From: an uncultured Candidatus Saccharibacteria bacterium
GTDB taxonomy: Bacteria; Patescibacteriota; Doudnabacteria; UBA920
Direction: 5' to 3'
Assembly (NCBI GenBank): GCA_964642585.1
Contig: CAZXPB010000001.1
Location: 3,733-67,732, forward strand
Length of the DNA stretch: 64,000 bases
In this document: positions 2,219-64,000 of the stretch, piece after piece
Layout of the letters: each line of letters opens with the position of its first letter
Position numbering within the stretch: position 1 is the first letter of the stretch
Program-made: the position numbers and the translations under genes
Notes under the pieces: model-generated
What the model saw: only the letters and a program-made list of their open reading frames with translations
Databases searched by the model: none
What the model was told of the DNA's origin: nothing

Positions 2219-5200
2219 TTATGCTAGAGGAAGAGTCTGTTTGCGAAGGTTTTCTTCAGCAATATCAGCGTTAAAGCCAGTTCCAGCAGGAATTAGCTTA
2301 CCGATGATCACATTTTCCTTCAAACCTCTTAAATAGTCAGTCTTTCCAGTTACAGCCGCCTCAATTAGAACACGAGTTGTTTCTTGGAAAGATGCCGCCG
2401 CTAGAAAGCTTTCAGTAGATAGAGATATCTTAGTAATACCCATTAGAAGTTGTTCCGCTTCAATTAGATTTCGGCCTTCACCTTCAAGGAGTTCATTCAT
2501 TTCTTGCATCTTGGACTTATCTATCATATCACCTGGTGCAAAGTCTGAATCACCACCATTTACTACGCGCATCTTAGAGAACATTTGACGAGCAATAATT
2601 TCTACGTGCTTGTCGTGAATTTGTTGTCCTTGAGAAACGTAGATATCTTGAACTTCTTTTACCAAATATTTCTGAGCCGCTTCTACACCTTGTAGTTCTA
2701 ATACTTGATTTGGATTTAAGTTTCCTTCAGTAAGTGGTTGACCAGGGTAAACTAAATCACCATCTTTAACTGTTAGAGAGAAACCGCGAGGAATTACATA
2801 TTCTACTAATTCATCACCTTCATGGATAAGTTTAATTTGGTTTTCTTCAACTTTCGCAATGCCAGCCGCTTGTGCTTTTACTAAAGTACCAGCTTCATCT
2901 GTGTAAAGTGCATCCCCTACTGCAGTATGTGTACCATCTTTAATGATTGTCTGCGCGCCAGAAGGGAGACTCAGAATTTCAGAAGTAACATTTTCTCCTT
3001 CAATACGAACGATTTGTTCACGAGTTGGAGCAATAGTAATAGAAACTTTTCCTGCAATTTCAGATACAGCGGCCATACCTTTTGGTTCGCGTGCTTCAAA
3101 TAATTCTTCTACACGAGGAAGTCCTTGAGTAATATCACTTACAGAAGCAGATCCACCAGTGTGAAAAGTACGCATAGTAAGCTGTGTTCCCGGTTCACCA
3201 ATCGCTTGTGCCGCTACAATTCCTACAGCTGCACCAAGGTCAACCATTTTGTTGAAACCAAGGTCATAACCGTAACATAGACGACAGATACCACGAACTA
3301 GTTTACATTTTAGTACTGAACGGGATTTCACTTCTGTAATTCCACTTGCAGCAATTTGAGTAGCTGTTAATTCATCGATACCTTGATTACGCTTTACGAA
3401 AACTGTGCCATCTTCTGCTTTTACGTCTACTGCTGCTACACGGCCGAATAAACGGTTTTCAAAAGATTGATTCATCATTTCACTTTCTGCGAGTGTAATT
3501 GCATCATAATCTTTAGTACCACAATCTTCGGCGTTAATAACAACATCTTGGGCAACGTCAACAAGACGACGAGTTAAGTACCCAGCGTCAGCAGTACGAA
3601 GCGCAGTGTCTGACATACCTTTTCGAGAACCATGAGTTGAGATGAAATATTCTAACACACCGATTCCTTCTTTAAAGGAACCACGAACAGGAAGTTCAAT
3701 AGTACGACCGCCAGGGTTTACCACCAAACCTTTTAGACCAGACATTTGAGTAATCTGTGAGAAGGAACCACGAGCACCGCTAGACACGAAGTAGTTTACG
3801 CTTGAGTGAGGCAGTACAGTACCAACCACATCCTTAGCAATTTTTTCAGAAGCATCTGCCCAAATTTCTACAACACGGCCATAGCGTTCATCTTCGGTAA
3901 GCAAACCTTCAAGGAATTGTTCTTGAGTTGCTTGTACTTCTTTATCAGCAGCATCAAGCAAAGTGTATTTGGTATCTGGAACTGTTAAGTCATCCATACC
4001 CCAAGATAGTCCAGATTGCTTCATGTAGTAGAACCCGGTACGCTTAATTTCATCAATTAGTTCTGCAGTGCGTTCTGAACCAAACAAACGATACGCTTCA
4101 CGAAGAAGTTGCTGTAATTTCTTTTTATCAAAAGCATCGTTGCGGTATCCCATTTCTTTTGGAACAATCTTGTTGAAGATTAAACGACCAACGGATGTTT
4201 CTACTAGCTCAGTACTTTCGTTACCAATACGCACTTTAATTTGCGCTTGAATATGTACATGTTTGTTGTTGTAAGCCATGATCGCTTCTTGACTATCGGT
4301 AAACACTTTGCCTTCACCCTTCAAGCCTTCACGAATTTTTGTAATATAGTAACAACCTACCACAGCATCTTTGTCAGGAGTCATAACTGGTTGACCAGAA
4401 GCAGGCTTCAGCAAGTTGTGAGAAGATACCATGATTTCTTTAGCTTCTTTTTGCGCCGCTTCAGTCAGTGGGACGTGAACAGCCATCTGGTCACCATCAA
4501 AGTCAGCGTTAAACGCTGCACAAACCATTGGGTGAAGTTGAATTGCTTTACCTTCAATAAGCACCGGTTGAAAGGCCTGGAAACCAAGTCTGTGCAAGGT
4601 AGGAGCGCGATTTAGAAGCACATAGTGATCTTTAGTTACTTCTTCAAGAATATCCCACACTTCTGTTCGGCTTTGTTCAATAAGTCGACTAGCTGAGCGA
4701 ACATTGTGAGCATACTCACGAGAAATTAATTTAGAAATTACAAACGGCTTGAAAAGTTCCAAAGCCATTGCTTTTGGAAGTCCACATTGATGCAGCTTCA
4801 AATTTGGTCCCACCACAATTACAGAACGACCAGAATAGTCTACACGCTTACCAAGCAAGTTTTGACGGAAACGACCTTGCTTCCCCTTAAGCATGTCTGC
4901 TAAAGAACGAAGCTTGCGCTTTTGTCCTGTGCTAGCCGTAACTTCTTTGCCATGGCGAACAGAGTTGTCGATTAAAGCATCTACCGCTTCTTGCAGCATA
5001 CGCTTTTCATTACGAGTAATAACTTCTGGTGATTTAATTTCCAAAAGTTTCTTTAGACGATTGTTTCGGTTAATAACACGGCGGTACAAATCGTTCAAAT
5101 CAGATGCCGCAAAACGACCACCATCAAGTTGCACCATCGGACGAAGGTCTGGTGGAATAACTGGTAAGTGAGTAATTAACATCCATTCTGGACGAAGTCC

Positions 5201-35824: not shown

Positions 35825-36919
35825 TTATAGCCGAATTGGCATTATTAAGTATAGGTAATTTTTATTATCTTCTGGCCTGAATACAACTGGATTCGTATCA
35901 TCAATTACATGCATATTAATTTGCTCTGATTCGGTGTTTAATAAAAGATCTAAAATATATCTGTAATTCATTATAACTGATCCAGATATACCAGTAATTG
36001 TACAAGGAATATCAATAATACTTTCCCCCACCCCTTGAGATGAGGATTTAGTTTGGAGAATCTGTTTTTCAACATCAAAATTTAAATTGATACTCCCTAC
36101 ACCCTTAGAAAAAATTCCACTTGTCTTTAATGCTGAAAGTAAATCTTTATGTTGTAATGTAATTACAGTTCCTTTTTCAGTAGGAATAATTTGAGAATAC
36201 TCAGGATATTGTCCATCAATTAATCTAGTGACTAGGTATGTATCATTAACAGAAACCGCTATTTGAGTTTCACTAATATCTAATTGTGTTGATTCAGTAG
36301 AATTTAACAGTAATCGGGATAGTTCTAAAATACTGCGATGAGGAATAATTACAGACTTATTAAAATCAGAGTTAATATTTAAAATATACTCAGATAATCG
36401 ATATCTATCTGTCGCTGTAACTGTTAACTTTCCAGAATCAAATTTAAATAAAACCCCAGAAAGTTCAGGTTGGGTTTCACTAGTACTTGCTGAAAAAACT
36501 ACTGAATCGATTGTACTCTTTAAGATATTTGAAGGGATAGAGATACTTTGAGAATCTTCAATTACTGGGATAATCGGAAATTCCTCAACTGGTATGTGTT
36601 TGATTTTAGTTTGGTATCTTGTTGTAGAAACTTTAGTTTCAACTTCACCTACTTCAATTGTAATGTTTTCGTTTGGGAGATTATTAACTAAATCAAGAAG
36701 AACTTTTGCTGTTAGACAAACACCGCCTTCAACTTCAATCTTACAACGAATGACTGTACTAATTCCCATTTCTAAATTCGTTGCTGATATCTTTAACTGA
36801 CCATTCTCGGTGTTAAGTAAAACATTGTTTAAAACAGGAAGTGTTTGACTAGAACCGACTACTCTAGATACTTGAGCTAATCCATTCTTTAAATTTTCTT
36901 GTGTACAAATAATTTTCAT
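35825..36919 (-). CDS. dnaN: DNA polymerase III beta sliding clamp
   Basis: 364 aa, three-domain clamp architecture; dnaA-dnaN-recF order. Confidence 0.93.
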   Translation of the reverse strand: MKIICTQENLKNGLAQVSRVVGSSQTLPVLNNVLLNTENGQLKISATNLEMGISTVIRCKIEVEGGVCLTAKVLLDLVNNLPNENITIEVGEVETKVSTTRYQTKIKHIPVEEFPIIPVIEDSQSISIPSNILKSTIDSVVFSASTSETQPELSGVLFKFDSGKLTVTATDRYRLSEYILNINSDFNKSVIIPHRSILELSRLLLNSTESTQLDISETQIAVSVNDTYLVTRLIDGQYPEYSQIIPTEKGTVITLQHKDLLSALKTSGIFSKGVGSINLNFDVEKQILQTKSSSQGVGESIIDIPCTITGISGSVIMNYRYILDLLLNTESEQINMHVIDDTNPVVFRPEDNKNYLYLIMPIRL

Positions 36920-37199
36920 TAGTATTGGTATTTATTTATTTAAAATTTAGAAATACATAATAATAAAGGGGGTGGAAAAGCGGATAACTTATTTATTTAG
37001 GTGAAACTAGTAATATTTTAGTTAAATTGTATCAAATTACGGTGTGGACTAACGTACTAATTATGAGTGATAAAGATTGGATAAAGTTTTTATAAACTCT
37101 GGATAAACTATTTATAAATTATTTACCTGTGTAAAACTATCTACTTATCCAGAGTTAAATATTTTTATCCATACCGATATACACAACTTAACTACTTAC
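36920..37199. promoter_or_regulatory. oriC candidate (dnaA-dnaN intergenic): clustered DnaA boxes plus AT-rich unwinding region
   Basis: TTATCCAGA, TTATCCATA, ctTTATCCA(rc), gTTTATCCAg(rc), TTATCCGC(rc) within 280 bp; AT-only stretch at 36935-36975. Confidence 0.7.
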
Positions 37200-38585
37200 T
37201 TATCCATAGATTTTTTCAAGAATTAAATCTATTTCCTGTTTAATATTATCTCCGCTAGACACCGCTGTTTCTATTTTTTCAACACCATGCATTACTGTAG
37301 TATGGTCCCTTCCCCCAAAGAAGTCACCAATTGCCGGGAATGAGCTATTCAATTCTTTCCTAGCAATATACATAGCGGCTTGTCTAGGTTTAACATACTC
37401 TTTTCGACGGGATTGTTTTAATAAATCTTCTACTGTAATCCCATAGAAATTTGCTACACTCTCCGCAATCTTAGTAAATGTAACTGCTTTTTTCTTAGAT
37501 TTAACAATATTAGCTAGGATAACTTTCGCTTGATCCAAAGTTAATGGGTTATTTTCAATTTGTTGATAAATAATTAACTTATTTAAAGCGCCTTCTAATT
37601 CTCTAATATTATTTACAACATTTTCCGCAATAAACTCAGTAACCTCTTTTGAAAACTGAATATTTCGTTTTCCCATTTTAGTTTGTAAGATTGCAATTCT
37701 AGTTTCAAGAGTTGGGGCACTAATATCCACCACCATTCCCCACTCAAATCTAGATACTAATCGTTGCTCAATAGCTGGAATATCTTTAGGAAGTCTATCA
37801 GCAGTTAAAATTATTTGTTTTCCTTTATCTCTTAATTCATTAAAAGTGTGGAAAAATACTTCTTGAGTTTGTTCTTTACCAGCAATAAATTGTACATCGT
37901 CTACAAGTAGCATATCTACATTTCGGTAAAGATTTTTAAACCCTTCCATCCTCTTTTGTCCTAAGGCAGCCACATAGTCGTTAGTAAACTTCTCACTAGT
38001 GACATAAAGAACTTTAAGGTTTGGATTAGAAGATAAATAACGGTTACCAATTGCGTGCATTAAATGAGTTTTACCAAGACCAACACCACCGTAAATAAAC
38101 AAAGGGTTGTATTGAGTGCCTGGATTTTTTGAAACTGCGGTACTTGCTGCATAAGCCAGTTCGTTATTTTGACCGACTACAAAAGTATCAAAAGTATATT
38201 GATTATTTAAGTTACTGCTATTTGGCGAAGTTTTTTGATTATTATCCTTTACTTTTAGATTTTCTTCTTCTGGGATTGCGTTAATATCTGATTTTTTATC
38301 TGAATCCGCTTTTGTTTGGCTGGTTGAGTCCGCATTTTTGAAGTGCCCAACATAGTATTTAATAACTTTTACCTCAGGGGCGATGGATTTTAACGCTTTT
38401 AGGAGGTTTGTGTGGTATTTACTAGAAATCCAGTCTCTTGTGAAGTTACTTGGTACCCCAACTACAATATAATCGTCGTTTTTCTCAATAATTCCAGTGT
38501 TTTTAAACCAAGTACCAAAGGTCATTTTACTTAATGAAACCTCTAAATCACCTATAATTGCTTGCCATAGTTGTTGGTTTGTCAT
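37200..38585 (-). CDS. dnaA: chromosomal replication initiator DnaA
   Basis: GGVGLGKTHLMHAIGN Walker A, box VII, C-terminal DNA-binding domain; -10 TAGAAT 8 nt before ATG. Confidence 0.97.
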   Translation of the reverse strand: MTNQQLWQAIIGDLEVSLSKMTFGTWFKNTGIIEKNDDYIVVGVPSNFTRDWISSKYHTNLLKALKSIAPEVKVIKYYVGHFKNADSTSQTKADSDKKSDINAIPEEENLKVKDNNQKTSPNSSNLNNQYTFDTFVVGQNNELAYAASTAVSKNPGTQYNPLFIYGGVGLGKTHLMHAIGNRYLSSNPNLKVLYVTSEKFTNDYVAALGQKRMEGFKNLYRNVDMLLVDDVQFIAGKEQTQEVFFHTFNELRDKGKQIILTADRLPKDIPAIEQRLVSRFEWGMVVDISAPTLETRIAILQTKMGKRNIQFSKEVTEFIAENVVNNIRELEGALNKLIIYQQIENNPLTLDQAKVILANIVKSKKKAVTFTKIAESVANFYGITVEDLLKQSRRKEYVKPRQAAMYIARKELNSSFPAIGDFFGGRDHTTVMHGVEKIETAVSSGDNIKQEIDLILEKIYG

Positions 38586-47335: not shown

Positions 47336-47412
47336 TGGTGCGCGTGCATGGATTCGAACCATGGACCACAAAGGTATAAGCTTTGCGCTCTAACCAACTG
47401 AGCTACACGCGC
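47336..47412 (-). tRNA. tRNA-Ile with UAU anticodon (reads AUA), CCA encoded
   Basis: GCGCGTG/CACGCGC acceptor stem, D-arm GCTC-AGTTGGTTA-GAGC, anticodon stem CAAAG/CTTTG with loop CTTATAC (U33, anticodon TAT, A37), T-arm CATGG-TTCGAAT-CCATG, discriminator A, CCA. Confidence 0.85.
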
Positions 47413-57720: not shown

Positions 57721-58081
57721 TTTTTAAATATCAACTCCTTATATCTATGGTAATAATCGCGAGGGGTTCAATCTTGGGTGCTATTCCCTGACTTTTACGA
57801 CCTAGATTTAATATTCTTAAGCTTTGACCTTGTTGGGGTTACTGCGATTAACAGCTTTTTTAGTCTAGTTTTGCCTATATTTGGGCTAAAAGCTCGCATA
57901 TAGGCTATAAAAAAGACTGCTCAAAGCAGTACCTTACAAATACATTATAGCAGTTTTGGGGGGTAAATACAAGCCATTTTAGGTCGTTTTAGGCTTAAAT
58001 AAGCCAAATAACGTTTTTTTAGGCTTGGGAATGGGCTGAATTGGCATACAACTCCGCTTATTTAAAAGGGGTTTGGTTTTT

Positions 58082-58112
58082 GATGGTGTTCCAAAGTACA
58101 GGATGTTAGGAT
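58082..58112 (-). repeat. 31-nt conserved element (copy A) immediately 3' of the Nudix-1 stop codon
   Basis: Minus-strand reading TCCTAACATCCTGTACTTTGGAACACCATCA followed by AAAAAC; matches copy B at 58551-58584. Confidence 0.6.
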
Positions 58113-58507
58113 TTATCATTTGCAAAGTTTTTAACCCATTCGCCACGTAATTTTAAATTATTAAGTTTTTCAACAGGAAACCACTTGGCATCAAGAAGGT
58201 CATCTCCAGGAATTAAATTCCCTGAAGTGATCTTGGCTTTAAAAATAGTTAAGGTTACTTGCTTGTTGTGGAATTCACTCAAGCATTTTAATTCCTTGCC
58301 TGTCATTGTTAGAGTATATTTTTTACCCAGACTTACGATGTAGCCAGTTTCTTCTTTTGTTTCTCTACTAGCTCCTTCTGCTAATGTTTCATTCTTTTCT
58401 AATGAGCCTATTGGTAATGACCATAACCCGTTCGCGGCAGTGTGCGATTCCTGAACTAATAATACCTGACTATTTTTGTTAACTAATGTTCCTGCAAATT
58501 GCATCAT
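58106..58507 (-). CDS. Nudix hydrolase
   Basis: Nudix box GSLEKNETLAEGASRETKEETGY; leaderless start with extended -10. Confidence 0.85.
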   Translation of the reverse strand: MMQFAGTLVNKNSQVLLVQESHTAANGLWSLPIGSLEKNETLAEGASRETKEETGYIVSLGKKYTLTMTGKELKCLSEFHNKQVTLTIFKAKITSGNLIPGDDLLDAKWFPVEKLNNLKLRGEWVKNFANDKS

Positions 58508-58549
58508 AAACCTAGTATAACAAAAAACTCCCCTTTAGGGAGAGCTTTT
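58508..58549 (-). promoter_or_regulatory. terminator hairpin (ctccc-taaa-gggag + T6) immediately followed by extended -10 promoter TGtTATACT, 6 nt from the Nudix-1 ATG
   Basis: Minus-strand reading ...aaaaagctctccctaaaggggagttttttgttatactaggtttATG. Confidence 0.6.
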
Positions 58550-58550
58550 T

Positions 58551-58584
58551 GATGGAGCTCCATAGTACAGGACGTTAGAACGTC
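58551..58584 (-). repeat. 31-nt conserved element (copy B) immediately 3' of the small Zn-ribbon protein stop codon
   Basis: Minus-strand reading (GACG)TCTAACGTCCTGTACTATGGAGCTCCATCA + AAAAAG; ~80% identical to copy A. Confidence 0.6.
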
Positions 58585-58886
58585 TATTTCACAATATCAG
58601 CAGATACAATTTTCTTAGTAATAGCTCCTACGAATACTCTGTAAGCTGGTCTACTTTCTTTCTTATAGATAATCTTACTACCTAGCACTTCTTTGCACTT
58701 AGTGCAGATTAAGTCATTACTCTTAGGCGCAGTTGGGTAAATACGGTCTAAATATAAACGTTTGATTATTCCTGGGCCATCTTTCTGATAATAGAATAAA
58801 TGATGTCCCGCTCTTTCACATTTAATATCCAACAACCTAGATGTTCCACCTCTATTCTTTCTGTATTTGTCCTGTTTAAGTTTCAT
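58584..58886 (-). CDS. small basic zinc-ribbon protein (C-x3-HH...C-x2-C), hypothetical
   Basis: 100 aa, 11-nt overlap with upstream Nudix-2 gene; K/R rich. Confidence 0.55.
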   Translation of the reverse strand: MKLKQDKYRKNRGGTSRLLDIKCERAGHHLFYYQKDGPGIIKRLYLDRIYPTAPKSNDLICTKCKEVLGSKIIYKKESRPAYRVFVGAITKKIVSADIVK

Positions 58887-59418
58887 TAACCAATTTAGTT
58901 AATAGTTCTTTGATCTCTTTAAATCCTGTTGGTCTGCTTGACCATTGATCGGGCTTTTCTTCTATGGAGTTTAAGACATCATCCAAAGACATCCATTTTA
59001 CTCCTTGCACTTCTCCGTCATTAAAGATTAAGTCATTCGTGTCGCCTGTAAAGTTGTAGAAGTATACATTAGTAAATTCTCTATTTGGTAACTTATCTCT
59101 TTTGTGAATAGGTCCCACGGTGACTTGTTCGGTAGAGATATCAAGACCTGTTTCTTCTTTCAGTTCATTTTTCAGGGCTTCTTCAAGGGTTTCTCCAGCC
59201 TTTACATGACCACCAAACCTAGTATCCCACTTATCAGGATTTAAGTCCTTGGTTTTGGAACGATGATGTACTAACAATTCAATAACTTCGTTATTAAGTC
59301 GGTAGAAGTAAATATGTACAGTTCGATGCCATAATCCTTGGGTATGAGCTTCAGAACGTAGTCTTTTCTCACCGGTTAAATTGCCCGATTCATCTAGTAT
59401 GTCAAAATATTCTTCCAT
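58876..59418 (-). CDS. Nudix hydrolase (second copy)
   Basis: Nudix box GGHVKAGETLEEALKNELKEETGL; extended -10 TGtTATACT 6 nt before ATG. Confidence 0.85.
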   Translation of the reverse strand: MEEYFDILDESGNLTGEKRLRSEAHTQGLWHRTVHIYFYRLNNEVIELLVHHRSKTKDLNPDKWDTRFGGHVKAGETLEEALKNELKEETGLDISTEQVTVGPIHKRDKLPNREFTNVYFYNFTGDTNDLIFNDGEVQGVKWMSLDDVLNSIEEKPDQWSSRPTGFKEIKELLTKLVNET

Positions 59419-59475: not shown

Positions 59476-61779
59476 TTAAGAAGAAGTAGTTGAGGTGCAA
59501 ATTGTCTCAAGCCGTGAATAATGATCTTCATCAGCCAACTCAATAAATTTTAGTACATTTAGCGCAATGGGTTTTGCTTCGAGCATTGATGCAGATATAC
59601 CGCGAGAGAAATCTTGACCGTGAGAATATTCGTGCAAAAACTTCACAATAAAATCTCCAGTTCCTTTCATTCTATCATCGTTACTCGTTACGAATCTACT
59701 CATTACAATACTATTAAATTCTTCAGTTGTTGCACATGACCACTTAAACCCAGCAAAATATTCTAAGATCTTTCGAGCTATATTCGCAACAAGTGGTTCG
59801 TCGAGCTGTCGTGTACCCTTAGCGAATTGATAAAGTCTACAGAATAAATACTGATACTCACTTTTATATTCTTTTAGTAAGTTAGGCAGATTTTCTATTT
59901 TGACTTCTTGGACTTCGCTTTCTTTATCGTGAGTAATCAGAAACATATTAGACTCATCTTTGTATTGTCTACTCATAAGCCAATCCCGAATAAGATTAAA
60001 GAAATCGAAGTTGTGAGTAAGTACTATTAATTGACCCACATCCTTTAAATGTCTTTTTATTAAACCCGCTGTGCGGAACAAGAATATACTGTCTTGACTG
60101 TCGACTGGATCATCTAAAACAACAAGGCAATTAGCTTTATCGCTATCATTTTCTTCCAGTTTAATTAAGAAATAAACTAAAGCTAAAACACTTTCCTCTC
60201 CCTCGCTAAGATGTTTGGCATCTTTTCCTCTTCTTTTCAGAATGTAAGATATTTCTCCGTCATCTGACTCATTTACCTCCAGATAGATAAGTGATTCCCC
60301 GAAAAATTCTTTTAATAGTGAATTAATTTTATCCACCGCATCAGATGCGTTTGTCAAAGACGCTTTTAAGACTTTAATATCTAGGAGTGTTTTGTTTCGT
60401 TCTTCTTTAGCTTTTTCTATTTCTGCCGTTAGTCTAATTACCTCACTTTTATTTTTAAAGTAGTTTTTGTTCTCTAGAATAGAAGCAATTGTATGAAGTT
60501 CAATACTTTCTGCAGCCGCTTTCACCTCTTCTGATATAGATTGCACTCTAATATTGTGCTCACTAACTATCTTTTCTATTGTTTTAAGAGATTCATTCGC
60601 TTTTTCTATATCTTCTCTGGGATATTCAATTGGTTCGTGCTTCTTCTCGTGATTGTGTAAATCAACCTGCTTATCTTTCAACTGCGTTATGATTAGGTTG
60701 ATTTGGTTTTGTATATTTTGAACGTGTTGTGATAATTCTTTCTTAGCAGCAGCACATTCTTTGCTTGGCTCGGGAAACAAAAGAGATGGTTCTAGTTCTG
60801 GAAGTTTCTCATTATTATCATTTCCAGCTAACAAATTAATAGTTTCTTGTATTTGTAATTTCGCTTTTTGTAGTTCGTCGGTAAAGAAACCACCTAACTG
60901 TACTAATAGATCATCTGGTAAAACGCCTTTGCAAAATTGGCATTCTTTTAACCCTCTTTGCTTATGTATTTTGTAACCAGCTTCTATCCAATCCTTTAAC
61001 TCACCATCTTCCTTTAATCCTTCAATGTTTTGAAAAGTAATTGAAGTGTTTAATAAACCATTGGCACTATCGAACAATTCTTCAAAATCCTCAATAGTGT
61101 TAAATTTAATATTTATCTCGGTCTTCTCATTTTTTATTACTTCTTTTTTAGAATCAACTTCGCTAGGTTCAGCAATAATAAGTGAGTTTAAGTTAGCTTC
61201 TGTGATAACCCCAGTTTCTAAACGTTTGTCTACCTTTAATTTATTATAACTTCGTCCGTAATATGTATCATCCCCTAATGGTGTATTGGTAAATTGTTTA
61301 GGAACTTCTCGGCCAGCTTGAGTTAATACATCGTCGGGATTAGGTATTTGTTTAAGTTGTTCTTCGAGTGTTTGTATTGTATTTTGATTAGTCTGGTAGT
61401 TTGATTCGTGTTGTTCAATTTGTTGTTGGGCTGTTACATTCTCTTTACCTAATATTACAATCTTTTTTGCTTGGGAATCCTCAAAGGATAAATTTTCTGT
61501 AATAAAGTCTTCGTTAAATACCTTAACGTTAAGTCCATTAGAAGTTATGTCTGTTTGCTTAATTGGAGATGCGTCTGTTTCTATGGAAAATTCAACTGAT
61601 TTCAAATCATCGATGTGAACATCCTTTCTTTCAAGAAAATTAAAGATTCTGGATATAGTAGTTTTTCCAGATCCGTTCCACCCATAAATTAGACCGTACT
61701 TCTTAAAGTCGTCCCCTATCCATTTAAACGCATCGAATGCGTCAATGTGTGTTATCTGTTTTATCTTCTTTATTAGCAT
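59476..61779 (-). CDS. RloC/PrrC-like ABC-type ATPase with coiled-coil CxxC (zinc-hook-like) insertion and C-terminal putative anticodon-nuclease domain
   Basis: Walker A GWNGSGKTT; ~350-aa coiled-coil insert containing CQFCKG; Walker B/D-loop LVVLDDPVDS; H-loop LTHN. C-terminal ARKILEYF...(≈40 aa)...H fits the R-x3-E...H anticodon-nuclease triad pattern (recalled from memory). Start taken at first ATG (MLIKKIK); GTG at 61809 is an alternative. Confidence 0.65.
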   Translation of the reverse strand: MLIKKIKQITHIDAFDAFKWIGDDFKKYGLIYGWNGSGKTTISRIFNFLERKDVHIDDLKSVEFSIETDASPIKQTDITSNGLNVKVFNEDFITENLSFEDSQAKKIVILGKENVTAQQQIEQHESNYQTNQNTIQTLEEQLKQIPNPDDVLTQAGREVPKQFTNTPLGDDTYYGRSYNKLKVDKRLETGVITEANLNSLIIAEPSEVDSKKEVIKNEKTEINIKFNTIEDFEELFDSANGLLNTSITFQNIEGLKEDGELKDWIEAGYKIHKQRGLKECQFCKGVLPDDLLVQLGGFFTDELQKAKLQIQETINLLAGNDNNEKLPELEPSLLFPEPSKECAAAKKELSQHVQNIQNQINLIITQLKDKQVDLHNHEKKHEPIEYPREDIEKANESLKTIEKIVSEHNIRVQSISEEVKAAAESIELHTIASILENKNYFKNKSEVIRLTAEIEKAKEERNKTLLDIKVLKASLTNASDAVDKINSLLKEFFGESLIYLEVNESDDGEISYILKRRGKDAKHLSEGEESVLALVYFLIKLEENDSDKANCLVVLDDPVDSQDSIFLFRTAGLIKRHLKDVGQLIVLTHNFDFFNLIRDWLMSRQYKDESNMFLITHDKESEVQEVKIENLPNLLKEYKSEYQYLFCRLYQFAKGTRQLDEPLVANIARKILEYFAGFKWSCATTEEFNSIVMSRFVTSNDDRMKGTGDFIVKFLHEYSHGQDFSRGISASMLEAKPIALNVLKFIELADEDHYSRLETICTSTTSS

Positions 61780-61818
61780 AATTGAGCTTATCTTAGCAGT
61801 TTTGTTCACTTATTAGAA

Positions 61819-61828
61819 GTGGTATAAT
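61819..61828 (+). promoter_or_regulatory. extended -10 promoter TGgTATAAT; predicted TSS ~61835
   Basis: Read directly; divergent from the RloC-like gene. Confidence 0.5.
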
Positions 61829-61835
61829 ATACGTA

Positions 61836-62024
61836 CAATTAAATGTCCTAACCCCACCTAAGACGTGGGTATGGAAACTAAAACCAATGAAGAATACTGA
61901 ACCCTGCGTTCAGCTATCTTCATTGGTCATGTCTGGAAACGGGCATGGGATCTCACGATCCGGCTGGCGTGGGGCTTTGTGTTAAAGAACCCATGTCGGC
62001 TCTAACTAATTAAGATTGTCGATC
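61836..62024 (+). promoter_or_regulatory. GC-rich highly structured 5' leader (~190 nt): candidate riboswitch or cis-regulatory RNA, class unassigned
   Basis: Long irregular helix ccaatgaagaata[ctgaac-cctgc-gttcag]ctatcttcattgg; ggatc-tcac-gatcc; catggg...cccatg closing helix. GC content far above the flanking DNA. Confidence 0.4.
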
Positions 62025-62453
62025 ATGGAAAAAGAAAACAAGATAGTATATTGGTTACGTTGGTTCGCTGTATTCCCTGGAGCTCTAATCGGTGGTTTTA
62101 TATCTAGTATGATTGCTAGTTTCCCGATACATTGGATCCTAGTCCTGAAAGCGTCATCTAATCCTGATGGAGCAACTGCTAGCAATTTTGAAACAATTGA
62201 GTTAGCTATTACATCATTTGTATTTACTGCTCTGTATATACATTTAGGAACTAAAATAGCACCTACAGGTAAAAAGTATATAACCGCCTTAGCACTTATT
62301 GTTGCTTTAATAATATTGGTAATCATACTAGCTACATCTTTCCATTTGGGAATGAGTAGTATTTCAAGAATGATTGCTGCGATATTAGGCCTGATGTATG
62401 CTACTTGGCAAGCTAAGATTGAAGAAAGAAAAATTACTAAGGATAATTCATAG
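62025..62453 (+). CDS. small 4-TM membrane protein, hypothetical (strand ambiguous with antisense ORF 62006-62467)
   Basis: ATG at 62025 (ORF track used TTG at 62016). Chosen over the antisense ORF because of the promoter/leader context and 6-nt coupling to the next + gene. Confidence 0.5.
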   Translation: MEKENKIVYWLRWFAVFPGALIGGFISSMIASFPIHWILVLKASSNPDGATASNFETIELAITSFVFTALYIHLGTKIAPTGKKYITALALIVALIILVIILATSFHLGMSSISRMIAAILGLMYATWQAKIEERKITKDNS

Positions 62454-62459
62454 CTAACA

Positions 62460-62879
62460 ATGAACATCTATCTAGATATTGACGGTGTAATTATTACTAA
62501 AGACAAAAAGATAGCTAATGGCTTAGTAGAGTTTTTAGAATACGCTACACATAATCACACATGTTTCTGGCTCACAACTCACTGTAAAAATGATGCAAAT
62601 CGTGTCGAAGAACATATTAAACCCATACTACCAGAACATGTTTTTAAGCTAGTTCAACGGGTGAAACCAAACTCATGGACGGACTACAAAACTGACGGCA
62701 TTAATTTTGACGAAGATTTTATGTGGTTAGACGACAACCTATTTCTCAAAGAAAAGGATGTTTTACTTAAGAACAACGCTTTGTCCAAGCTAGAACTGAT
62801 CGACTTAAGAGCGAATCCAAATCAGTTGTTAGATATACTAAAAAAGCTGAAATCAAAAACTCGGATAACGTCATATTAG
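62460..62879 (+). CDS. mini HAD-superfamily phosphatase (NT5C/PNKP-phosphatase-like)
   Basis: Motif I LDIDGVI, motif IV WLDDN; 139 aa. Confidence 0.6.
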   Translation: MNIYLDIDGVIITKDKKIANGLVEFLEYATHNHTCFWLTTHCKNDANRVEEHIKPILPEHVFKLVQRVKPNSWTDYKTDGINFDEDFMWLDDNLFLKEKDVLLKNNALSKLELIDLRANPNQLLDILKKLKSKTRITSY

Positions 62880-63030
62880 TGCATATTTGTTGAGCAGGTT
62901 TGGGGTCATAAAAGGTCATATTTTTAATATTGCTGGAAATAGTGATCTCTGAATTAATGTAATCGCTGTGTATTTCGCGCAAAACTCGCTCAAATTTAAG
63001 CGTTTCCGTCGGATCCTTACAAATACCTAT

Positions 63031-63059
63031 TGACTAGCAAAATTCGCTAAAGTACAATG
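63031..63059 (+). promoter_or_regulatory. promoter TTGACT-17-TACAAT with ~140-nt hairpin-rich leader ending in aacaca-ctcga-tgtgtt-UUUAUU just before the wHTH gene
   Basis: Read directly. Confidence 0.45.
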
Positions 63060-63206
63060 CTTTTAATGGAATAAGTAAATCCGAGAAGCCACCTCAGATT
63101 TCGGCATCAAATGCCCCAGGTAAAAAACTCGTGCTAACCAAGGCACCACAATTAAGTTTTTTATCGGGGTGTTATTTATTAACAACACACTCGATGTGTT
63201 TTTATT

Positions 63207-63554
63207 ATGCCTAAAATTAAGCACAAATTTATAAGAGTACACTGGGTAAGTTTAAAAACTTTTAATCTTACACCTACCGAAGTACTGCTATTAAACCTTG
63301 TACAAGGTTTATCTAATAACAAACATAAAGCTTGCTACGCCTCTAAGAAAGCATTGGGAATAGAATTAAATGTGGCTACAAGTACGATTTATAACACTAT
63401 TGATAGTTTGCAAAGGAAAGGACTTTTAAGATCTAAAAGAATTTCTATGAAAGAGGCTCATTTGCAGACCACAAGTAAATGGCAAAGTCATTTAAATCAG
63501 GTTCGATCAGATAATGAACCATTACCAGATGAATGGTCAGACATTGATAACTAA
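63207..63554 (+). CDS. winged-HTH DNA-binding protein resembling phage/plasmid replication-initiator or DnaD-like N-terminal domains
   Basis: …TPTEVLLLNLVQGLSNNKHKACYASKKALGIELNVATSTIYNTIDSLQRKGLLRSKR… typical wHTH pattern. Confidence 0.5.
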   Translation: MPKIKHKFIRVHWVSLKTFNLTPTEVLLLNLVQGLSNNKHKACYASKKALGIELNVATSTIYNTIDSLQRKGLLRSKRISMKEAHLQTTSKWQSHLNQVRSDNEPLPDEWSDIDN

Positions 63555-63570
63555 TTTTCTAATATCCAAA

Positions 63571-63621
63571 TTCTAGAATTAACAGTCTTAATTCTAGAAA
63601 ATTACTCTCCATAATCTAGAA
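63571..63621. repeat. three phased palindromic TTCTAGAA-type repeats (iteron/operator-like)
   Basis: aaaTTCTAGAAtt (63571), aaTTCTAGAAaa (63592), aaTCTAGAAta (63615); spacing 21-22 bp. Confidence 0.55.
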
Positions 63622-63726
63622 TATTAGCATCCAGATTTTAGAGACAATATATATAACAATACAAATAATTAATATTTATAAGTAATAGCTTTACGAAATC
63701 AATTCGTAAAGAACTCAAACTAATAA

Positions 63727-63888
63727 TATGCAATTAACAGATAAACAAATACAAGAATATATAGATCTACATAAAAAAAAGTTTGGAGAAACTATAAGTC
63801 GTGAAGAAGCTATTGTCCAAGCTACTAAATTATTGGATTTAGTTAAACTTGTTTATAAACCAATTAAGAAAGATTCTGATAAAAGATA
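63727..63888 (+). CDS. small hypothetical protein (53 aa)
   Basis: MQLTDKQIQEYIDLHKKKFGETISREEAIVQATKLLDLVKLVYKPIKKDSDKR; below ORF-track cutoff; weakly supported. Confidence 0.3.
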
Positions 63889-64000
63889 GTTTGTCCCCCG
63901 TGCCAAGAGGAATCGTATCGGTGATAATTTAAATAACAACTATCCCGTGCCTAAGTAACAATTTGAGTTGATAATTCCTTTATTGGAATAGTCTTTATCT

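Follow-up and report, generated by a model that had tools for sequence, protein, structure and literature searches.

Near the right-hand end of a 64,000-nucleotide (nt) stretch of DNA from an uncultured Candidatus Saccharibacteria bacterium (contig CAZXPB010000001.1; the whole stretch is called the window here) lies a small winged-helix gene, followed directly by phased palindromic repeats and, just past the window end, by what appears to be the start of a large serine recombinase (LSR) gene. This region is apparently the control module of a genomic island mobilised by the LSR. The reading that we rank first, with a probability of about 0.47, is that the winged-helix protein acts as a switch for the integrase operon by binding iterons. 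The second-ranked reading is a minimal replication origin, because the protein lacks a helicase-recruiting domain and no replication genes are recognised in the islands; the two roles are compatible.

An earlier note on this DNA had assigned the final 6 kb or so to a mobile or defence island running past position 64000, and this is borne out by about 5.5-6 kb with an attachment-site (att) junction at 58553, a PDC-S06 defence candidate and an LSR-like start at 64050. The note had also taken the repeats and their gene for the probable edge of an integrated plasmid or phage-like element. They are instead a control region inside the element, a short way upstream of the integrase gene, with the left edge at about 58553 and the right edge predicted about 1.7 kb past the window; an integrated mobile island with the look of LSR mobilisation stands, and plasmid or phage structural genes were not seen in it.

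In the proposed switch, a stand-alone winged-helix binder descended from the origin-binding N-terminal domain of phage O-like or DnaD-like initiators would sit, probably as dimers, on four palindromic sites two helical turns apart and directly 3' of its own gene. The array adjoins a -35-like hexamer and an AT-rich tract, and the operon of a 53-amino-acid (aa) open reading frame (ORF), a structured leader and the LSR would be started or read through there, with a hairpin at the place of the expected transcript start. Integrase expression, and with it the integrated or excised state of the island, would be set by occupancy of the array, through repression, roadblock or activation. That the 115-aa winged-helix protein binds the array is likely; that its effect is on integrase transcription and not on replication is slightly less than an even bet.

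Linkage of the winged-helix gene to large serine recombinases

The switch fits the constant position of the module directly upstream of LSRs from four clades. In seven of the seven independent contexts with enough sequence (loci L016, L019, L021, L022, L034, L035 and L037, with homologues at 30-46% aa identity) an LSR gene lies downstream of the small homologue, on the same strand and 190-530 nt away. The module thus recurs beside unrelated serine integrases in uncultured bacteria. The LSRs carried by relatives have Resolvase and Recombinase domains (plus Zn_ribbon_recom), and those of the seven contexts fall in four clades with at most 29% identity to one another, so the link is to LSRs in general and not to one lineage. 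The LSR adjoins a truncated comM in L019 and L035 and is followed by housekeeping genes in L016 and L034, which places the winged-helix/LSR pair at the end of an integrated element. We note that the islands of two other winged-helix-linked LSR clades are inserted in comM, which is Mg-chelatase-like (L019 8997-12031, L035 1671-3975). Restriction-modification genes are carried upstream of the winged-helix gene in L034, L037 and L019. A limited literature search found no published account of an O-type winged-helix domain standing alone, with iterons outside its gene, beside serine integrases.

The repeat array and the region up to the LSR start

The near-identical palindromes that had been noticed 3' of the winged-helix gene are confirmed, with centre-to-centre spacings of 21, 22 and 22 bp once a degenerate fourth site is included (Table 1). 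Taken together, sites 1 and 2 are a perfect inverted repeat (63571-63599; arms of 12 nt, spacer of 5 nt), and three of the four sites also make up a direct repeat, TCCAnnnTyTAGAr. A phased triple at no more than one mismatch occurs in none of 300 Markov-1 simulated windows, and of 751 stretches in the window the 170-nt one from 63496 has the most 9-mers recurring at 21-23 nt (9 matches against a mean of 0.17); these statistics are descriptive only, the pattern having been picked after it was seen. The second-strongest periodicity of this kind in the window is at 36976-37230 (7 matches), intergenic between ORFs 35825-36919 and 37200-38585. Sites 1 and 2 were also considered as an intrinsic terminator and rejected, the stem being of AT pairs only with no U-run after it.

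The periodicity is a property of the family. Across nine loci, the 170 nt around the stop codon contain 49 9-mers recurring at 21-23 nt against about 2.7 expected, and three related LSR loci without a winged-helix gene give 0, 0 and 2 matches. The repeat itself differs from locus to locus, being TTCTAGAA in the window, AAWTTCAGAR in L034, CTAAAAATTCTTTAG in L019 and L035, CCACTATGAAA in L037 and TATTGKAAAYCTCCA in L022. The name iteron-like given to the repeats therefore suits them, as the period is kept family-wide and the sequence varies by locus alongside diverged proteins. Directly after the last repeat, a -35-like hexamer and an AT-rich tract are present in eight of the nine loci (all but L035), the relatives carrying an equivalent (T/A)(A/T)(G/T)ACA hexamer and then the AT-rich tract, and in the six loci measured the hairpin lies 36-55 nt further on.

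Comparison with L034, the closest locus, whose winged-helix protein has 41% aa identity to that of the window, shows how unevenly the region is conserved. Nucleotide identity is 81% in the promoter and leader of the winged-helix gene, falls to 57% in its coding sequence and 48% in the repeats, is 59% in the AT-rich tract and hairpin, and rises again to 82% in the 53-aa ORF and 92% in the leader before the LSR. A diverged core of winged-helix coding sequence and repeats between conserved flanks reads as an immunity-region-like mosaic. Diversifying selection on a DNA-binding protein and its cognate sites should produce such a pattern, whether they are repressor and operator or initiator and iterons. 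In the 53-aa ORF, the 49 codons compared differ from L034 by 7 synonymous and 9 non-synonymous changes. The pre-LSR leader ends in a long hairpin (GGAATAGTCT...AGACTATTCC) and T6, 8 nt before the ATG at 64050, and the segment AACAACTATCC at 63934 is complementary to the 3' half of this hairpin, which suggests that the leader may be an attenuator. A C(C/G)GTGCCAA motif that lies about 150 nt before the start of the LSR is found again in L039 and L040.

A promoter and a structured leader had likewise been proposed for the winged-helix gene, and both are recovered. The promoter is TTGACT-17-TACAAT and the leader (63056-63210) folds better than shuffled versions of itself (z = -2.6) and contains inverted repeat I3. 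The conservation in L034 quoted above applies to 62952-63206 and reaches about 90% over 63110-63206. Autoregulation of the gene through its own leader was considered and set aside, as the leader has no cognate sites and is conserved between loci with differing repeat motifs. A scan of 61700-64000 with Rfam in E-value mode returns LOOT only, and both conserved leaders are therefore not known RNA families.

Island boundaries and the integrase gene

The 72-nt block 58517-58588 is 95.8% identical to L034 539-610, although the sequences to its left and right are unrelated in the two genomes, and L041 has the same att architecture. When the P' arm (58559-58588) is compared with the B' arm of a tRNA-Gly, 13 of 25 positions match at an offset of +5 nt and 4-9 at other shifts, and the arms of L034 and L041 behave in the same way. 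A 5-bp shift of the distal motif separates the attP-type and attB-type half-sites of serine integrases (PMC3783163), and because the P' arm fits tRNA-Gly best at exactly +5 nt we read 58553 as an attL-type junction and the left edge of the island. The right junction is at the 3' end of a tRNA-Gly in four of the four loci of this LSR clade, and attR is predicted at a tRNA-Gly about 1.65 kb beyond 64050. In these four loci (Table 1) the LSR frame enters the 3' end of a tRNA-Gly gene on the minus strand and closes with the residues WSG, whose codons, TGGAGCGG, are complementary to the 3' end of the tRNA. Many relatives in this clade end in WSG, and where their organisms are named these are Moranbacteria, Parcubacteria or Patescibacteria. 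The circular junction of the excised island is predicted to read P arm - TGGAGC - TCCATAGTACAGGACG..., and the empty attB terminator - TGGAGC - GGCCAAGGGG...

Two att-type copies, the junction and a degenerate one, flank a Nudix gene, and a second P' arm is present inside the L034 island at 4062-4086, which suggests that elements may have accumulated in tandem at the tRNA-Gly. The left arm at 58553 may be host sequence or what is left of an older element. Viral contigs did not contain the att core. The tRNA-Leu and tRNA-Cys genes at 56.7-56.9 kb were considered as the integration site and rejected, both for their 3' ends, which point away from the island, and for the position of the att junction (58553).

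For the integrase gene itself, a probable start at window-equivalent 64050 is given by a contig of another sample (L001). This contig is identical to the window over the whole overlap (1304/1304) and extends 68 nt past the window end; at 64050 it reads ATG AAT GTA TCC AAT CC, 19 nt of the gene are visible, and the encoded MNVSNP aligns with the start (MKVSNP) of the 557-aa L034 LSR inside an 82% identical block. The earlier note had held that conservation of the block in all related genomes with no mobility genes nearby would refute its view; this does not apply, as an LSR-like gene appears to start 50 nt past the window end. The full LSR of this genome was not recovered, either because the source contig ends near the window end or because the gene is broken, and this is the main gap in the argument.

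Compared with A118, phiC31 and SCCmec, the island would be an LSR element unusual both in its target and in the way the reading frame overlaps that target. It shares with them the 5-bp attP/attB shift and, apparently, an integrase gene at the element end. It differs in that the target would be the 3' end of a tRNA-Gly, with the LSR ORF reading into the opposite-strand tRNA to give a C-terminal WSG, and in carrying a defence candidate in place of phage genes, on a backbone with LOOT RNA and the winged-helix/iteron module.

The winged-helix protein

The protein belongs to Pfam HTH_36 (PF13730; 26.9 bits against a cutoff of 25, E = 4.3e-6, residues 20-74). Membership of the Rep or DnaD families, to which the earlier note had likened it, is not upheld by profile searches: DnaD_N (PF21984) scores 14.5 bits against a cutoff of 27 (E = 0.041), the DnaD N-terminal domain in the PDB (2vn2) is matched at E = 0.06 only, and there is no Rep_3 or RepA_N Pfam match for a protein that has a single winged-helix domain in 115 aa, compared with the two domains and roughly 250-350 aa of iteron-type plasmid Rep proteins. 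MarR (PF01047) scores 16.5 bits against 24.6, so that the likeness is at fold level only, and TrmB and the remaining HTH families score under their Pfam cutoffs.

Its AlphaFold2 (AF2) model (predicted local distance difference test score, pLDDT, 88) has one winged helix, then one C-terminal helix and the acidic tail. The top fold matches in the PDB are the N-terminal domains of the RepA_N plasmid initiators 4pql and 4pt7, and MarR regulators follow at similar modest scores; when the family sequence profile is compared with solved structures, MarR/SlyA-type regulators are best (E = 5e-5). Viral fold matches are better, with template modelling (TM) scores of 0.65-0.77, and some are named replication initiator or replisome organizer. 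Direct PHROG matches of the 115-aa protein are weak (9e-6 to 7e-5), and a family profile (A1) finds proteins of 200-310 aa in viral contigs at E values of 1e-13 to 1e-21, which PHROGs identify as O-like or DnaD-like initiators. A relationship to replication-initiator N-terminal domains, which the earlier note had seen, is thus supported by the PHROG and viral fold matches and by the RepA_N domain at the head of the PDB list.

The layout of the DNA agrees with this relationship. In the genes of the 200-310-aa initiators, periodic repeats of 21-24 nt and the AT-richest 40 nt come just after the winged-helix domain, mostly at nt 340-420. Here too a homologous origin-binding N-terminal winged-helix domain has phased repeats and an AT-rich tract directly 3' of its coding sequence; the C-terminal domain that recruits helicase or its loader is absent, and the ORF ends at residue 115, as in relatives of 105-130 aa. 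The module thus appears to match in layout the origin-bearing N-terminal half of an O-like initiator gene, ending after the DNA-binding domain, and the protein would work like an O-type initiator N-domain or a MarR-type operator binder.

Relatives are numerous in an exhaustive phmmer search, which finds 93, mostly stand-alone, of 105-130 aa and 30-44% identical. Word-indexed searches return only the protein itself. No relative was found in 185,579 GTDB species-representative genomes scanned with the single protein and alignment A2, in a first viral scan with the single protein, or by tblastn against cultured phage and plasmid records. The metagenome scan gives mostly phage long forms, a 31-sequence alignment is too diverse for pattern scans, and exact look-ups of the 115-aa and 53-aa proteins return two short contigs only, the longer adding 68 nt. 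Two relatives have tandem winged-helix domains, with 8 copies in P0013 (587 aa) and 6 in P0037 (408 aa).

Alternative explanations

Several observations weigh against a switch on the integrase operon. The AT-rich tract is weakly promoter-like, scoring 9/12 in an AT-rich background, and a promoter scan at that threshold gives no match in L034, L022 or L035. An initiator-type winged-helix domain with iterons, an AT-rich tract and a palindrome on its 3' side has the look of a replication origin, and the closest relatives outside the family are phage initiators whose genes contain 21-24-nt repeats and an AT-rich tract. The winged-helix gene and periodic repeats are both missing from the three loci whose LSRs are closest to that of L034, so the module is accessory to the integrase and not essential for its function. 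Of the LSR gene of this genome only the 19 nt in L001 are visible, and the 69,419-nt source contig contributes none of the 120 top relatives of the L034 LSR.

The strongest competitor, serious but less probable than the switch, is that the region is a minimal replication origin, with a cut-down O-type initiator, four iterons, an AT-rich unwinding element and the palindrome as part of the origin, and that the excised circle replicates through helicase loading by the host or a helper phage, perhaps recruited by the acidic C-terminal tail. Here the winged-helix domain is followed in turn by 21-22-bp repeats, an AT-rich tract and a palindrome, an order like that in the viral initiator genes matched by profile A1 and in lambda O with ori-lambda. 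Lambda O and the phage O-like or DnaD-like helicase-loader initiators (PHROGs 270, 428, 345, 186 and 391) share with the module the homologous N-terminal winged-helix domain, followed by phased, often dyad-symmetric repeats of about 21-24 nt and then an AT-rich tract. The better viral folds and the RepA_N domains, which are iteron-binding winged helices, point the same way, and diverged initiator/iteron pairs would equally give the mosaic with L034. Also in its favour, SaPI (Staphylococcus aureus pathogenicity island) origins lie 3' of rep, and SCCmec has replication genes beside its ccr serine recombinases. However, the gene here stops after the winged-helix domain, leaving the repeats intergenic and not inside the gene, and has no C-terminal helicase-loader or organiser domain, which is found in every long homologue; its place is beside a serine integrase in a chromosomal island and not among the replication genes of a phage. 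Neither a helicase nor a primase or loader is recognised in this or the related islands, many of whose ORFs lack assignment. The RepA_N likeness (TM 0.51-0.56 at 18-21% identity, with no second domain here) does not exceed that to MarR regulators, and the fixed place immediately upstream of the integrase gene is not demanded of an origin. A wider version, somewhat less probable again, is that of a helper-dependent minimal origin within an undescribed backbone of integrase-mobilised defence islands of uncultured, probably candidate phyla radiation (CPR)/Patescibacteria, bacteria, a backbone that would also hold the orphan LOOT RNA and serine integrases whose frames end in their tRNA-Gly target.

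For the switch on the integrase operon, the nearest regulatory parallel is in the MarR/SlyA-type repressors, dimeric winged-helix proteins of palindromic operators, which give the best sequence-profile match among solved structures and are of similar size, with palindromic sites overlapping promoter-like hexamers. They differ in having N- and C-terminal dimerisation helices, which are not evident here, and a single operator upstream, compared with a four-site array of 21-22-bp period downstream of the gene.

A third proposal, that the protein or the 53-aa ORF is a recombination directionality or architectural factor allowing the LSR to excise, with the sites as an Xis-like loading or bending platform, seems improbable. 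To our knowledge no sequence signature defines such factors, and a gene adjoining LSR genes of four clades, a small protein with an acidic tail able to contact another protein, and a small conserved ORF between winged-helix gene and LSR in two loci would all suit one. The sites, however, are about 2.1 kb from the predicted attR and about 5 kb from attL and so are not arm-type sites, the closest LSR relatives are without the protein, and the LSR directionality factors characterised to date are known to work through the integrase coiled-coil and not through DNA arrays (PMC3783163 and PMC5499577).

A partition centromere with its binding protein, serving an excised plasmid-like form, is very improbable: phased repeats beside a small DNA-binding gene do resemble parC/ParR-type centromeres, but no ParA/ParM-type NTPase is present in this or the related islands and the family is tied to LSRs, not to partition genes. 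Equally remote is an ordinary host transcription factor beside chance repeats with no mobile element, which the generic MarR-like fold and the mild drop in GC content would allow and which is already contradicted by the 7/7 LSR linkage, the att junction with its LSR half-site shift, the family-wide periodic repeats and the failure to find the family in the species-representative genomes scanned.

Cargo, LOOT RNA and the setting of the island

The window is chromosomal, as it carries rpoB, rpoC, gyrA and the genes for a class A penicillin-binding protein, ribosomal protein S1 and HtrA. A tRNA gene called tRNA-Ile (anticodon TAT) is present at 47336-47412 on the minus strand. Beyond tRNA-Leu and tRNA-Cys the order is a 229-aa ORF, a Nudix gene, the 100-aa ORF, a second Nudix gene, the AAA_13 ATPase, LOOT, two small ORFs and the winged-helix module. 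A GC anomaly, which the earlier note had proposed to look for, is slight: the island has a GC content of 0.342 and the rest of the window 0.379, and one other part of the window is equally low. The AAA_13 ATPase is a candidate defence protein of the island, with a full-length hidden Markov model match to PDC-S06 (7e-135, residues 11-770 against profile positions 1-737 of 740).

LOOT RNA heads the rightward operon in the window and is present in seven of the nine related LSR loci scanned, always at an operon head and 0.6-2.8 kb from winged-helix or LSR genes. It is common to unrelated LSR clades and also to islands without a winged-helix gene, and looks like a backbone component of this island family. 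Literature searches of limited extent found no description of its function and none that places LOOT in islands of this sort. A group I intron (RF00028, 87.9 bits) lies at 18922-19150 of L041, beside a tRNA-Ala in the host DNA that flanks this related island.

Table 1. Features of the island and its control region. Positions are those of the window unless a locus is named.
Feature	Position	Strand	Remarks
Degenerate second att-type copy	58077..58109		TGGTGT tccaaagtacaggatgttagga; blastn-short 88% over 33 nt to 58546-58578
Nudix gene	58106-58507		between degenerate att-type copy and main junction
attL-type junction (as read here)	58517..58588		A-run/hairpin/T-run left arm aaaaaactcccctttagggagagctttttga; core TGGAGC 58553-58558; P' half-site tccatagtacaggacgttagaacgtctat
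100-aa ORF (cargo)	58584..58886	-	no match in family searches
Nudix hydrolase, 180 aa (cargo)	58876..59418	-	Pfam NUDIX 2e-17; PADLOC PDC-S07 9e-8
AAA_13 ATPase, 777 aa, candidate anti-phage defence protein	59476..61809	-	Pfam AAA_13 3e-114; PADLOC PDC-S06
LOOT RNA, head of rightward operon	61845..61961	+	Rfam RF03000; 71 bits, gathering 46.4; full model
Probable membrane protein, 145 aa	62016..62453	+	no significant Pfam family
139-aa protein, weak HAD hydrolase resemblance	62460..62879	+	Pfam Hydrolase_6 E = 0.08, below cutoff
Promoter-like sequence	63030..63058	+	TTGACT-17-TACAAT; 10/12 consensus positions; both hexamers kept in L034
Structured leader, conserved	63059..63206	+	long hairpin 63115-63169, then small hairpin and U-run right before ATG
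Winged-helix protein (HTH_36), 115 aa	63207..63554	+	stand-alone, acidic C-terminal tail; Pfam, AF2 model
Array of four phased sites	63566..63643		directly 3' of winged-helix stop codon
Site 1	63571-78		TTCTAGAA; exact
Site 2	63592-99		TTCTAGAA; exact
Site 3	63614-21		ATCTAGAA; 1 mismatch
Site 4	63636-43		TTTTAGAG; 2 mismatches, degenerate
AT-rich tract (~45 nt)	63644..63688		-35-like GAGACA 63641-46; -10-like AATAAT 63664-69; promoter score 9/12
Palindrome/hairpin	63689..63711		CTTTACGAA-atcaa-TTCGTAAAG; 9-bp stem; hairpin at same relative position in 9/9 loci
53-aa ORF	63728..63889	+	78% aa identity to 54-aa ORF of L034; no match in family searches
Pre-LSR leader, conserved, ~160 nt	63890..64000, on to window-equivalent 64049	+	92% identical to L034 10701-10858
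Block shared with L034	58517-58588		L034 539-610; 95.8%
Block shared with L034	62952-63221		L034 9745-10015; 81.5%
Block shared with L034	63637-64068		L034 10438-10877; 82% (444-nt block)
LSR/tRNA-Gly overlap	L034 12470-12543; L039 7069-7142; L040 11588-11661; L041 11582-11656
LOOT in related loci	L034 8720-8834; L037 8283-8402; L021 3220-3339; L041 7055-7173; L016 1-120; L019 6367-6480; L039 2718-2843

Implications

For serine-integrase islands in bacterial lineages that have received little study, the region would provide a concrete and testable module of control or replication, and with it a clade of serine integrases that has a defined tRNA-Gly target and recognisable attP and attB half-sites. 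The naturally diverged pairs of protein and site (TTCTAGAA, TTCAGAG, CTAAAAATTCTTTAG and others) could show how specificity evolves in this winged-helix family. The orphan LOOT RNA gains a genomic context, in islands and at the head of an operon, through which its function becomes approachable.

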